Source of the DNA: a virus | Taxonomy: Duplodnaviria; Heunggongvirae; Uroviricota; Caudoviricetes | Direction: 5' to 3' (one strand) | Virus record (IMG/VR): IMGVR_UViG_3300039368_000121 | DNA: 4,746 bases | Part shown: one piece after another, positions 1 to 4,646 of the stretch | How positions within the stretch are numbered: position 1 is the stretch's first letter | Layout: each line of letters begins with the position of its first letter | Notes under the pieces: generated by a model | What the model saw: only the letters and a program-made list of their open reading frames with translations | The model's database searches: none | Told to the model about the DNA's origin: nothing | Program-made: the position numbers and the translations under genes

Positions 1-502
1 CCGGCGGCTGCAGGTGCAGAGTGATTTGCCGTGGTGGCTGGTCTGCCGGGGGACGATTCATAAATTCCGCTGTGTGCCGCATCTCACCGGGCGGCGCTTT
101 GAGCACGGGGTGACGGACTGTTACACGCTGTTCCGGGATGCTTATCATCTGGCGGGGATTGAGATGCCGGATTTTCATCGCGAGGATGACTGGTGGCGTC
201 ACGGTCAGAATCTCTATCTGGATAATCTGGAGGCCACAGGGCTGTATCAGGTGCCGTTGTCATCAGCACAACCGGGCGATGTGCTGCTGTGCTGTTTTGG
301 TTCATCGGTGCCGAATCATGCCGCCATTTACTGTGGTGATGGCGAGCTGTTGCACCATATTCCTGAACAACTGAGCAAACGAGAGAGGTATACCGACAAA
401 TGGCAGCGACGCACACACTCCCTCTGGCGTCACCAGGCATGGCACGCATCTGCCTTTACGGGGATTTACAACGATTTGTCCGCCGCATCGATCTGCGTGT
501 GA
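1..502 (+). CDS. K: Tail tip assembly protein K, C-terminal NlpC/P60 peptidase-like domain; 5'-partial, the reading frame is open to the window start (codons at 2-13 have no stop) and the N-terminal part lies upstream of the window
   Basis: The translation (…VTDCYTLFRDAYHLAGIEMPDFHREDDWWRHG…NHAAIYCGDGELLHHIPEQL…) matches my memory of the lambda gpK C-terminal region. The NlpC/P60-type catalytic residues are present: Cys codon tgt at 119-121, His codon cat at 317-319, His codons at 353-358. Stop TGA at 500-502. The track's start at 14 is a GTG with an open frame upstream, so the true start is outside the window. Position immediately upstream of I and J fits lambda gene order. Confidence 0.85.
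   Translation, partial: RRLQVQSDLPWWLVCRGTIHKFRCVPHLTGRRFEHGVTDCYTLFRDAYHLAGIEMPDFHREDDWWRHGQNLYLDNLEATGLYQVPLSSAQPGDVLLCCFGSSVPNHAAIYCGDGELLHHIPEQLSKRERYTDKWQRRTHSLWRHQAWHASAFTGIYNDLSAASICV
381..388 (+). promoter_or_regulatory. Shine-Dalgarno-like purine run (GAGAGAGG) upstream of the I start codon
   Basis: GAGAGAGG at 381-388 ends 11 nt before the ATG at 400. The spacing is on the long side but it is the only good ribosome-binding site near either candidate start of I. Confidence 0.4.
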
Positions 503-1041
503 AAACGGGGGCCGAAGCCATCCGGGCGCTGGCCATGCAGATCCCGGCGTTTCGTCAGAAGCTGAGCGACGGCTGGTATCAGGTACGCATTGCCGGGCGT
601 GATACAGGTGAAACGGAATTATCAGCCCGTCTGAATGAACCGCTGGCAAATGGTGCTGTGATCCATATCGTGCCGCGTCTGGCAGGAGCCAAAAGTGGCG
701 GTGTGTTTCAGGCTGTGCTGGGGGCGGCTGTTATGGCGGTTGCTATATGGATGCCGGGGGTAGGAATTATGGCGAGTAATCTGCTGTTTTCTCTCGGTGC
801 CAGTATGACGCTTGGCGGTGTTGCACAGATGCTGGCCCCTAAACCCAAAACCCCCCGCACACAGACAACGGATAACGGCAAACAGAACACCTATTTTTCT
901 TCACTGGATAATATGGTTGCCCAGGGCAATGTTCTGCCCGTTCTGTACGGTGAAATGCGCGTGGGATCACGTGTGGTATCTCAGGAGATCAGCACAGCAG
1001 ATGAAGGTGATGGTGGTCAGGTTGTGGTGATTGGTCGCTGA
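400..1041 (+). CDS. I: Tail assembly protein I (lambda gpI family), 213 aa
   Basis: The N-terminus (MAATHTLPLASPGMARICLYGDLQRF…) and C-terminus (…NTYFSSLDNMVAQGNVLPVLYGEMRVGSRVVSQEISTADEGDGGQVVVIGR) match my recollection of lambda gpI, with a Gly/Ala-rich hydrophobic middle segment. ATG at 400 is the first start after the in-frame stop at 364-366; an alternative in-frame ATG lies at 439. Stop TGA at 1039-1041. The gene overlaps the 3' end of K by 103 nt in a different frame. Confidence 0.85.
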   Translation: MAATHTLPLASPGMARICLYGDLQRFVRRIDLRVKTGAEAIRALAMQIPAFRQKLSDGWYQVRIAGRDTGETELSARLNEPLANGAVIHIVPRLAGAKSGGVFQAVLGAAVMAVAIWMPGVGIMASNLLFSLGASMTLGGVAQMLAPKPKTPRTQTTDNGKQNTYFSSLDNMVAQGNVLPVLYGEMRVGSRVVSQEISTADEGDGGQVVVIGR

Positions 1042-1059
1042 TGAAAAACGTTTTATGTG

Positions 1060-1088
1060 AAACCGCCTCCGGGCGGTTTTATCGTTTA
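1060..1088 (+). terminator. Terminator-like hairpin in the I-J intergenic spacer: perfect 8-bp stem, 4-nt loop, T-rich tail
   Basis: AAACCGCC (1060-1067) pairs perfectly with GGCGGTTT (1072-1079) around the loop TCCG (1068-1071), followed by T-A-T-C-G-T-T-T-A (1080-1088). Five of the eight stem pairs are G:C. The T tract is interrupted, so this may be a weak terminator or an mRNA-stabilising or processing hairpin. Confidence 0.4.
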
Positions 1089-1089
1089 T

Positions 1090-1093
1090 GGAG
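1090..1093 (+). promoter_or_regulatory. Shine-Dalgarno sequence (GGAG) for J
   Basis: GGAG at 1090-1093 lies 8 nt upstream of the J ATG at 1102-1104. Confidence 0.6.
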
Positions 1094-1101
1094 CATGACG
1101 A

Positions 1102-4100
1102 ATGGGTAAAGGCAGCAGTAAGGGGCATACCCCGCGCGAAGCGAAGGACAACCTGAAATCCACGCAGCTGCTGAGTGTGATTGATGCCATCAGCGAAGGG
1201 CCGATTGAAGGTCCGGTGGATGGATTAAAAAGCGTGCTGCTGAACAGTACGCCGGTGCTGGACAGTGAGGGGAATACCAATATATCCGGCGTCACGGTGG
1301 TGTTCCGGGCAGGTGAGCAGGAGCAGTCACCGCCGGAGGGATTTGAATCCTCCGGCTCCGAGACGGTGCTGGGTACGGAAGTGAAATATGACACGCCGAT
1401 CACCCGCACCATTACGTCGGCAAACATCGACCGTCTGCGCTTTACCTTCGGTGTACAGGCACTGGTGGAAACCACCTCAAAGGGTGACAGGAATCCGTCG
1501 GAAGTCCGTCTGCTGGTTCAGATACAGCGTAATGGTGGCTGGGTGACGGAAAAAGACATCACCATTAAGGGCAAAACCACCTCGCAGTATCTGGCCTCGG
1601 TGGTGGTGGGTAACCTGCCGCCGCGCCCGTTCAATATACGGATGCGCAGGATGACGCCGGACAGCACCACAGACCAGCTGCAGAACAAAACGCTCTGGTC
1701 GTCATACACCGAAATCATCGATGTGAAACAGTGCTACCCGAACACGGCACTGGTCGGCGTGCAGGTGGATTCGGAGCAGTTCGGCAGCCAGCAGGTGAGC
1801 CGTAATTATCATCTGCGCGGGCGCATTCTGCAGGTGCCGTCGAACTATAACCCGCAGACGCGGCAATACAGCGGTATCTGGGACGGAACGTTTAAGCCAG
1901 CATACAGCAACAACATGGCCTGGTGTCTGTGGGATATGCTGACCCATCCGCGCTACGGCATGGGGAAACGTCTTGGTGCGGCGGATGTGGATAAATGGGC
2001 GCTGTATGTCATCGGCCAGTACTGCGACCAGTCAGTGCCGGACGGCTTTGGCGGCACGGAGCCGCGCATCACCTGTAATGCGTACCTGACCACACAGCGC
2101 AAGGCGTGGGATGTGCTCAGTGATTTCTGCTCGGCGATGCGCTGTATGCCGGTATGGAACGGGCAGACGCTGACGTTCGTGCAGGACCGGCCATCAGATA
2201 AGGTGTGGACCTATAACCGCAGTAATGTGGTGATGCCGGATGATGGCGCGCCGTTCCGCTACAGCTTCAGCGCCCTGAAGGACCGCCATAATGCCGTTGA
2301 GGTGAACTGGATTGACCCGAACAACGGCTGGGAGACGGCGACAGAGCTTGTGGAGGACACGCAGGCCATTGCCCGTTACGGTCGTAACGTCACGAAGATG
2401 GATGCTTTTGGCTGTACCAGCCGGGGGCAGGCACACCGCGCCGGGCTGTGGCTGATTAAAACAGAACTGCTGGAAACGCAGACCGTGGACTTCAGCGTGG
2501 GTGCCGAAGGGCTTCGCCATGTACCGGGCGATGTCATTGAAATCTGCGATGATGACTATGCCGGTATCAGCACCGGCGGGCGCGTGCTGGCGGTAAACAG
2601 CCAGACCCGGACGCTGACGCTCGACCGTGAAATCACGCTGCCATCTTCCGGCACCACGCTGATAAGCCTGGTTGACGGGCAGGGGAGTCCGGTCAGCGTG
2701 GAGGTTCAGTCCGTCACCGACGGCGTGAAGGTGAAAGTGAGCCGTGTTCCTGACGGCGTTGCTGAATACAGCGTATGGGGGCTGAAGCTGCCGACGTTGC
2801 GCCAGCGCCTGTTCCGCTGCGTGAGTATCCGTGAGAACGACGACGGCACGTATGCCATCACCGCCGTGCAGCATGTACCGGAAAAAGAGGCCATCGTGGA
2901 TAACGGGGCGCACTTTGACGGCGACCAGAGCGGCACGGTAAATGGTGTCACGCCGCCAGCGGTGCAGCACCTGACCGCAGAAGTCACCGCAGACAGCGGG
3001 GAATACCAGGTGCTGGCGCGCTGGGACACGCCGAAGGTGGTGAAGGGCGTGAGCTTCCTGCTTCGCCTGACCGTGGCAGCGGATGACGGCCGTGAGCGGC
3101 TGGTCAGCACGGCCCGGACGACGGAAACCACTTACCGCTTCACACAACTGGCTCTGGGGAACTACAGGCTGACAGTCCGGGCAGTAAATGCGTGGGGGCA
3201 GCAGGGCGATCCGGCGTCGGTATCGTTCCGGATTGCCGCACCGGCAGCGCCGTCGCGGATTGAGCTGACGCCGGGCTATTTTCAGATAACCGCCACGCCG
3301 CATCTTGCGGTTTATGACCCGACGGTACAGTTTGAGTTCTGGTTCTCGGAAAAACGGATTGCGGATATCAGGCAGGTTGAAACCAGCGCGCGTTATCTTG
3401 GTACGGCACTGTACTGGATAGCCGCCAGTATCAATATCAAACCGGGCCATGATTATTATTTTTACGTTCGCAGTGTGAACACCGTTGGCAAATCGGCATT
3501 CGTGGAGGCTGTCGGTCAGCCGAGTGATGATGCATCAGGCTATCTGGATTTTTTCAAAGGCGAGATAGGGAAAACCCATCTGGCTCAGGAGCTGTGGACG
3601 CAGATTGATAACGGTCAGCTTGCGCCTGACCTGACTGAAATCAGGACGTCCATAACGGATGTCAGCAATGAAATAACACAGACCGTCAATAAGAAACTGG
3701 AAGACCAGAGTGCAGCGATCCAGCAGATACAGAAGGTTCAGGTTGATACAAATAATAACCTGAACAGCATGTGGGCAGTGAAGCTGCAGCAGATGCAGGA
3801 CGGACGCCTTTATATTGCGGGTATCGGTGCCGGTATTGAGAACACCCCTGACGGCATGCAGAGTCAGGTGCTGCTGGCAGCAGACAGGATTGCGATGATT
3901 AATCCTGCGAATGGCAACACAAAGCCGATGTTTGTTGGTCAGGGCGATCAGATATTCATGAATGAAGTGTTCCTGAAACGCCTGACGGCCCCCACCATTA
4001 CCAGCGGCGGTAATCCTCCGGCATTTTCCCTGACATCAGACGGGAGACTGACGGCGAAAAATGCGGATATCAGTGGCAGTGTGAATGCGAACTCAGGAAC

Positions 4101-4599
4101 GCTCAACAATGTCACGATTAACCAGAACTGTACGATTAAGGGCATGCTGGAGGCGACCCAGGTCAGAGGAGATTTCGTTAAAGCTGTATCAAAAGCCTTC
4201 CCGAAAAAAGTCGGTACGTGGGGTAACACGGAAACACCAAACGGTACGGTTACAGTCACCATCAGCGATGATCATAACTTTGACCGCCAGATTATTATTC
4301 CGCCCATTATTTTTAACGGTATAGCGTATGACGATCCGGGGAGCGGAAATAACCCAGGAGGCACGCGATACACGGGTTATGGTTTTGAAGTTCGCAAAAA
4401 CGGCGTATTAATCGCATCCAGAGAAACTAAAGGGGCCATTCCCGGTAGTTACAGTGCAGTTATTGATATGCCGAGTGGCAGGGGAAGCGTCACTCTGGAG
4501 TTTAAGATTTTCCAGAAAGGCAATCAGGGGGCAGGCAATATCACCGACTGTACGGTGATTGTGACCAAAAAAGCCGCTTCCGGCATCAGTATTCGTTGA
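1102..4599 (+). CDS. J: Host specificity protein J / central tail fibre (tip attachment protein), 1165 aa
   Basis: The N-terminus ([58 protein letters not shown]…) matches lambda gpJ as I recall it. The length is close to lambda J (1132 aa as I recall). The middle region contains two fibronectin type III-like segments (about nt 2950-3240 and 3240-3530, e.g. …[37 protein letters not shown]…). The C-terminal region (…[19 protein letters not shown]…[13 protein letters not shown]…[14 protein letters not shown]) is recognisably gpJ-like but diverged. The ORF is uninterrupted, has a good ribosome-binding site, and stops at TGA 4597-4599 ahead of a strong terminator. Confidence 0.95.
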
Positions 4600-4617: not shown

Positions 4618-4646
4618 AAAGGGCGTCAGGAATGACGCCTTTTTTA
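4618..4646 (+). terminator. Rho-independent (intrinsic) terminator downstream of J
   Basis: GGCGTCA (4622-4628) pairs with TGACGCC (4633-4639) around the loop GGAA (4629-4632). The stem is extendable by AAAG/(C)TTT flanks and is followed directly by a run of six T (4640-4645). It sits 19 nt after the J stop codon. Confidence 0.8.

Follow-up and report, generated by a model that had tools for sequence, protein, structure and literature searches.

The window analyzed here, 4,746 nucleotides of DNA from a tailed phage (Caudoviricetes; IMG/VR record IMGVR_UViG_3300039368_000121), contains the end of tail gene K, genes I and J and, between the latter two, a short spacer with a hairpin (Table 1). 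Its closest overall matches are the lambdoid phages mEp332 (97%) and Ayreon (94.7%). An initial annotation, made from the sequence of the window, had drawn attention to the I–J spacer, and everything it stated about the sequence itself (the I stop, the ATG at 1041, the 22-codon open reading frame [ORF], the J start, the GGAG, the 8-bp stem, and the T-rich tail) is correct. The phage 21 record labels the GGAG a ribosome-binding site, and the motif is invariant in 39/39 unique lambda-type junctions.

Table 1. Coordinates of the features discussed; positions are those of the window except in the last line, which refers to phage lambda
Feature	Coordinates	Strand	Remarks
Tail gene K, end part	14..502		End overlapped by I, as in lambda
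Tail assembly gene I (213 aa)	400..1041	+	ORF list; Pfam PF06805 Lambda_tail_I, E = 1.2e-23; homologue of lambda I, 14773..15444
Gene I stop, TGA	1039-1041		
22-codon ORF	1041..1109	+	Begins within the TGATG; runs to 5 nt beyond the J ATG
I–J intercistronic spacer, 60 nt	1042..1101	+	Same element as lambda 15445-15504 (53/60 identical)
Sense-strand hairpin	1057..1082	+	8 Watson-Crick pairs at the core, 11 with G·U, U-A, and G·U
T-rich tract TTTTATCGTTTAT	1077..1089	+	Interrupted U-tract; first three T's pair with AAA at 1060-1062
GGAG Shine-Dalgarno of J	1090..1093	+	8 nt before the ATG, 10 nt after the hairpin core
Central tail fibre/host-specificity gene J (1165 aa)	1102..4599	+	Pfam PF13550, PF24421, PF24801, PF24489, PF09327, PF12421
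Second terminator-like hairpin, just past the J stop	4618..4645	+	AAAGGGCGTCA-GGAA-TGACGCCTTTT plus T run
Lambda (L131) hairpin-bearing gaps	6080-6134, 7161-7201, 18904-18964, 19586-19649		Sense strand

The core of the I–J hairpin, AAACCGCC-UCCG-GGCGGUUU (DNA arms AAACCGCC and GGCGGTTT), pairs positions 1060 to 1067 with 1072 to 1079 in eight perfect pairs, five of them G-C, and closes on a cUNCGg-type tetraloop, UCCG, at 1068-1071. This is the GC-rich stem with a short loop on the transcribed strand, about 5 to 14 bp, by which intrinsic terminators are recognized. When folded as RNA, the segment 1057-1082 reaches -17.4 kcal/mol (z = -5.3), with 0/200 shuffles being as stable. The whole spacer folds with z = -3.3 on the sense strand and z = -1.4 on the antisense strand, and the minus-strand copy of the hairpin has no T tail. 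By a rule of our own making, terminator-like hairpins are present in 35 of 3,672 control 70-nt windows from related loci (0.95%). The I–J hairpin is real and strand specific, and it is more than a chance occurrence.

The U-tract reads UUUUAUCGUUUAU, and three of its first four U's pair with the upstream AAA; an interrupted tract (UUUUAUCG or UUUUGUCA) is common to the lambda-type junctions. As the maximal stem absorbs part of the T run, a consensus terminator scan did not call the I–J hairpin in either the window or lambda, and the analysis therefore relied on folding against shuffles, on our own rule with its controls, and on flagged homologues. The same scan, for whose rule the window's tract is too interrupted, calls the counterparts in locus L119, HK542, and T1, which have cleaner T runs, terminator-like. 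Searching Rfam 15 over the spacer gave SAM-SAH as the best match, whose 17 bits (E = 2.4) fall short of the gathering score of 40, and nine related loci gave no Rfam matches at E ≤ 0.1.

To the initial annotation, the spacer looked like a small insertion that had uncoupled I and J, on the premise that the two genes overlap in lambda through a TGATG junction. The lambda records (NC_001416 and J02459) instead place I at 14773..15444 and J at 15505..18903, leaving the same 60-nt gap. Window positions 940-1200 align end to end with lambda 15343-15603 without any net change in length (261 bases in both), and the J start, which had been thought to have moved 61 nt downstream, lies at the same spacing in lambda. 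The lambda I–J region (15445-15504) shares the stem (AAACCGCC/GGCGGTTT), the TGATG, the frame of the 22-codon ORF, the GGAG, and the context of the J start. Seven substitutions separate the two spacers: one changes the loop (UGCG in lambda, UCCG in the window, both UNCG type), and the others fall in the flanks, at 1044, 1049, 1081, 1084, 1095, and 1099.

Much the same junction is found well beyond lambda. We compared 112 related loci, taken from genomes and viral contigs: almost all have a spacer of 59 to 61 nt with the same hairpin, and 12 have one identical to that of the window. A 141-nt stretch spanning the spacer (1000-1140) occurs at 8,130 places in 4,242 of 5,426 complete Escherichia coli genomes. 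That lambda and essentially all lambda-type junctions carry a 59- to 61-nt spacer is the very observation that the initial annotation had named as speaking against an insertion. The spacer is ancestral, the ordinary lambda I–J junction and not an insertion; as a sequence the element is already known, being the textbook lambda junction.

In a translationally coupled TGATG junction, the ATG that overlaps the stop would be the start codon of the following conserved gene. Here, ATG 1041 opens nothing but a nonconserved mini-ORF, and J has its own start at 1102 with an invariant GGAG, as in lambda; I and J are separate translation units. Judging from the lambda maps, I and J neither overlap nor are coupled there, and the TGATG is not vestigial relative to lambda. 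The 22-codon ORF does not fare better as a meaningful remnant, since 12 of 13 polymorphic changes in its frame among lambda-type spacers are nonsynonymous, and the 59-nt spacer variants, which have a 1-nt deletion, shift the frame. ATG 1041 is gone wherever the 5' part of the spacer is replaced. By these comparisons the mini-ORF is without sign of coding constraint, and the TGATG and its ORF are incidental.

The stem, by comparison, is strongly conserved. Among 39 unique lambda-type junctions, its 16 positions are invariant except in one degraded prophage copy, and the variation lies at loop position 1069 (C or G, a UNCG loop either way) and in the flanks. Stem diversity is 0.016, against 0.08 to 0.13 at neighboring third codon positions. 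The HK97/HK022-type phages, whose J N termini are only about 35% identical to that of the window, carry AGGCCACC-NNNN-GGTGGCTTTTTTTATGG in the corresponding place between I and J, a cassette that can be aligned with the lambda-type one. When lambda-type and HK97-type hairpins are aligned together, 89.5% of cells pair and four of the eight pairs change on both sides; cells with double changes number 12, compared with 4.5 ± 2.2 in shuffles, and 0/500 shuffles reach the observed value. As the MAFFT alignment mis-registers four hairpins with 3- or 5-nt loops (four rows), the pair counts are conservative. In the aligned junctions the stem thus appears as a maintained structure, compensatory changes included. 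Two degraded prophage copies in E. coli and Shigella chromosomes, L039 and L040, have fragmented I and J frames; the hairpin is intact in L039, and the stem is damaged in L040 (AACCGCC..GGGGTGGTT).

The comparison was carried to more distant phages through a locus search for J homologues, seeded with a three-sequence alignment of J N termini. Homologues of J occur in 1,519 phage records. By our rule, a terminator-like hairpin is present in 53/59 distinct I–J gaps, which amount to only about 8 to 10 independent sequence families, versus 0.95% of control windows. Hairpin-bearing gaps are found even where J is only 33 to 40% identical. Hairpins occupy the I–J position in HK542, T1, Serratia phages Bigdog and PhooPhighters, Klebsiella phage phi1_146046 and its relatives, and Stx-type phages, and the stems of the T1-like, Klebsiella, Serratia, and Stx-type phages are unrelated. 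Perfect 7- to 8-T tracts, typical of terminators, follow the hairpins of T1, HK97, and Bigdog type; in PhooPhighters the hairpin is present and the T run is poor. Six of the 59 gaps fail the rule, as does Yersinia phage P400, and five of these six gaps and P400 are without a hairpin, the sixth being that of PhooPhighters, indicating that the hairpin is dispensable. P400 has no I–J gap at all, and a few loci have gaps of 12 to 33 nt.

GenBank records carry "terminator" labels between gpI-like and gpJ-like genes in phage 21 (OL657228), Ayreon (MF807953), and T1 (AY216660), all of which are computational annotations, not experiments. In phage 21 and Ayreon, the labeled sequence is homologous to the window, with the same position and strand, a GC stem, and a T run. 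The T1 terminator has the same position and strand, but its stem, AACCCGC/GCGGGTT, is unrelated and is followed by a perfect 8-T tract and then by a -10-like motif, TGTATAAT.

Several of these gaps have peculiarities of their own. In T1 (L128:891-967) and the Klebsiella phages (L132-L154), a conserved extended -10-like motif, TGTATAAT or TGTACAAT, lies 10 to 15 nt past the hairpin; 17 nt upstream of this motif, the hairpin loop contains a TTGCGC. Hairpin and motif may form a coupled terminator-promoter ahead of J; it may also be that the hairpin in the virulent T1-like phages simply marks an operon boundary. The gap of the Stx-type phages PhiR12_2 (L123:752-1000) and PhiR12_4 (L124:747-1000) measures 249 to 254 nt and holds two strong hairpins and an annotated hypothetical ORF of 32 aa, with J starting at a GTG. 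This gap gave no Rfam or PHROG match and could hold a small RNA or a mini-moron. In HK542 there are near-twin hairpins (L129:268-287 and 929-948), AAACCACC-TACG-GGTGGTTT and AAGCCACC-TCCG-GGTGGCTT, each followed by TTTTTATGG. One comes after the gp20 moron and before the I-like gene, in the K–I gap, and the other precedes the J-like gene. Each is similar to the hairpin of lambda-type I–J junctions.

The I–J gap also receives genes. Moron cassettes of lambdoid phages are described by Juhala et al. 2000, as summarized in PMC3594210. In HK022, gp22 and gp23/srb, annotated as "moron gene product," lie between the I-like and J-like genes and so occupy the I–J gap, of which the gap in the window is the empty form. 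In another group of loci (L103-L107 and L114-L120; e.g., L119:2143-2620), 477 to 478 nt separate the I stop from the J start, mostly insert, with a GC content of 0.33 to 0.40 versus 0.55 to 0.61 in the flanks. The insert encodes a 112-aa lipoprotein-like protein (MNKTILFCTIIALTGC...) that matches phrog_914 (function unknown) and gave no Pfam or NCBIfam match. Directly 3' of this gene is a compensated variant of the hairpin, GAGCCGCC..GGCGGCTT; with the low-GC gene placed after the I stop and ahead of it, the hairpin would there serve as the gene's 3' terminator.

A reverse-strand Cu/Zn superoxide dismutase gene, sodC (PF00080), occupies the gap in three further loci, L026 (2149-2862) and L072 and L076 (about 2143-2841). 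The Citrobacter locus L026 has kept the hairpin before J despite sodC. In L072 and L076 that hairpin is lost, J has no obvious Shine-Dalgarno before it, and a different hairpin, AATCACCG..CGGTGATT, adjoins the I stop. True inserts at the site thus place 477 to 714 nt between the I stop and the J start, with low GC in the one profiled (L119). The window's spacer has none of the marks of a moron: it contains no extra DNA relative to its relatives, no promoter-like match in or near it, and no conserved ORF. Long I–J gaps, of 402 to 731 nt, are also seen in the HK97-type loci L155, L192, L194, and L205; in L155 and L192 the gap has a GC content of 0.43 to 0.44, compared with 0.51 to 0.55 in the flanks, and only short ORFs. 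In L155, L192, and L205, the hairpin has kept its place just upstream of J.

Few gaps in the otherwise tightly packed late operon of lambda reach 40 nt, and each of those that do (D–E, E–FI, I–J, J–lom, and lom–stf) holds a sense-strand GC hairpin with a T run. The other four hairpins share build and strand with the I–J hairpin and differ from it in sequence, and the T tracts of D–E and lom–stf are cleaner. All of them must be read through by Q-modified polymerase (Q antitermination). The J–lom hairpin is analogous to the second hairpin of the window, which begins 19 nt past the J stop, folds with z = -4.0 on each strand, has T runs on both strands, and is matched by the consensus scan on the minus strand. 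The Ayreon record has two terminators under its match to the window. With one such hairpin on either side, J is bracketed by terminator-like hairpins.

Taken together, these observations lead us to favor, at somewhat better than even chances, a canonical, ancestral lambda-type spacer whose core is an intrinsic-terminator-type hairpin that Q-modified polymerase reads through. With ordinary RNA polymerase, the hairpin and U-tract would cause termination, which we infer purely from the anatomy. It would probably be partial, because the U-tract is interrupted and the distance from the I stop to the stem is short (15 to 18 nt in the window). In a tR2 reporter system, termination efficiency ranged from 0.12 to 0.8 at a stop-to-terminator distance of 17 to 18 nt and was maximal beyond about 27 to 30 nt (PMC4824070). 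Termination at this point would shield J and the genes beyond it from stray transcription and from transcription arising in morons, and any gene inserted upstream would find a terminator already in place. In lytic growth, Q-modified polymerase coming from pR' would read through the I–J hairpin as through those at D–E, E–FI, J–lom, and lom–stf, a read-through by late-gene antitermination that can reasonably be inferred from established lambda biology. Since a 3' end formed at the hairpin, or trimmed back to it, would be protected from 3' exonucleases, stabilization of the upstream tail-gene mRNA is a likely side function. A literature search on a lambda I–J terminator or late-operon 3' ends found no experimental study of the I–J site; the conserved sites reported for EHEC prophage small RNAs are downstream of pR', not at I–J (PMC4104026).

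The initial annotation had also suggested that the hairpin acts within the late tail operon as a terminator or as an RNA-stability element, possibly insulating J in the prophage state. The first part stands as a reasonable reading of the anatomy, the sense-strand orientation, and the "terminator" labels in phages 21, Ayreon, and T1. A purely prophage-state insulator cannot be the whole story, as the virulent T1-like phages have retained a hairpin in this place.

Other readings of the hairpin fit parts of the same evidence. It might be mainly an mRNA stability or processing element, with termination irrelevant: after endonucleolytic cuts in the 26-kb late transcript, it would guard the tail-gene mRNA upstream of it from 3'-to-5' exonucleases and would thereby fix the ratio between the transcript segments that precede and follow J. 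A role of this kind agrees with the stability of the stem and its cUNCGg-type loop, with the similar hairpins that follow the highly expressed lambda D and E genes, and with the conserved position in virulent phages, which have no prophage state. A pure stabilizer, however, needs no 3' T run, yet a sense-strand T run is present in nearly every lineage and extends to perfect 7- to 8-T tracts in the T1-, HK97-, and Bigdog-type hairpins, so that we consider this reading unlikely, if deserving of some weight; it and the terminator reading are not mutually exclusive. Rather improbable is a scar of moron traffic, largely neutral: a gene cassette once inserted between I and J would have left its terminator behind when it was lost, and the hairpin would persist for want of selection against it. 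In favor of a scar, the gap is a proven insertion site, the low-GC gene inserted in the L119-type loci ends exactly at the hairpin, and in HK542 the gp20 moron of the K–I gap is followed by a near-twin of the hairpin cassette before J. But the stem is more conserved than neighboring third codon positions, its pairing is kept by compensatory changes, and distant lineages without an insert have hairpins of unrelated sequence at this very position, which together argue for selection rather than drift.

The spacer could also be a module boundary, a conserved linker promoting homologous exchange of J alleles, just as the initial annotation had considered a recombination joint at which a different J allele was grafted on. 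Inserts do enter at the I–J gap, and the hairpin and a TTTATGG motif are common to lambda-type and HK97-type phages, whose flanking proteins are about 35% identical. Against this, a patch of 20 to 40 nt is short for homologous recombination, and the breaks lie elsewhere: identity to lambda drops inside I (window 601-900, 56 to 83%), J is 95 to 100% identical over its N-terminal 2.4 kb and diverged from about 3500, and identity across the spacer is 90 to 96%. The mosaic joints are therefore not at the spacer; a grafting joint there does not survive the comparison, and a linker role seems to us very unlikely. Equally hard to credit is a relay in which ribosomes that have completed I start again at AUG 1041, read across the hairpin to a stop 5 nt beyond the J AUG, and pass on to J, so that translation of the mini-ORF would melt the terminator and both read-through and J translation would depend on translation of I. 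This would make sense of a TGATG that is invariant in lambda-type junctions and of an ORF that ends within 6 nt of the J ATG in the 60-nt and 59-nt variants alike. It is at odds with the absence of coding constraint and of a conserved frame, with the lack of the ATG in moron-bearing, Citrobacter, HK97-type, and T1-type junctions, and with the invariant GGAG of J itself; moreover, about 38% of random 20-codon stretches are open. Finally, a recent 61-nt insertion that split an overlapping I/J, left a vestigial TGATG, and shifted the J start downstream can be virtually dismissed. The TGATG at the I stop speaks for it and nothing else does, while the identical architecture in lambda, in almost all of the 112 related loci, and in about 4,200 E. 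coli genomes, and the hairpin-bearing gaps of phages with J 33 to 40% identical, speak against it.

In place of an insertion, which rested on a mistaken lambda map, the main use of the result is this correction and the context it provides. The I–J hairpin is structurally constrained, recurs across distant siphophages, and marks a cargo site (sodC, the lipoprotein-like gene, and HK022 gp22/gp23). In prophage annotation, a gap with a terminator-like hairpin is to be expected before J, and where the gap is long it is worth looking for cargo genes. For phage engineering, the I–J gap is a natural, tolerated insertion point that adjoins the host-range gene.

A wider generalization, which we put forward as speculation and think doubtful, is that a terminator-type hairpin upstream of J is selected and near universal in temperate and virulent J-bearing siphophages, and that the bracketed J would constitute an insulated unit of transcription or RNA stability, possibly with gating, in lambda-type phages, by translation through the TGATG mini-ORF. 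In the literature we found, neither J insulation nor mini-ORF gating is described or tested.

Two minor observations concern the genes on either side. The diverged C-terminal part of J (3500-4599) includes the receptor-binding domain and is mosaic relative to lambda. A set of short, low-coverage contigs (L013-L025, L029-L038, and L041) encodes an I protein 79% identical to that of the window, and at least L037 and L041 have the exact I–J spacer of lambda. These contigs come from assemblies of unrelated bacteria (Neobacillus, Pseudomonas, Shewanella, Bradyrhizobium, Enterococcus, and others) and look like phage lambda contamination or spike-in rather than real prophages.
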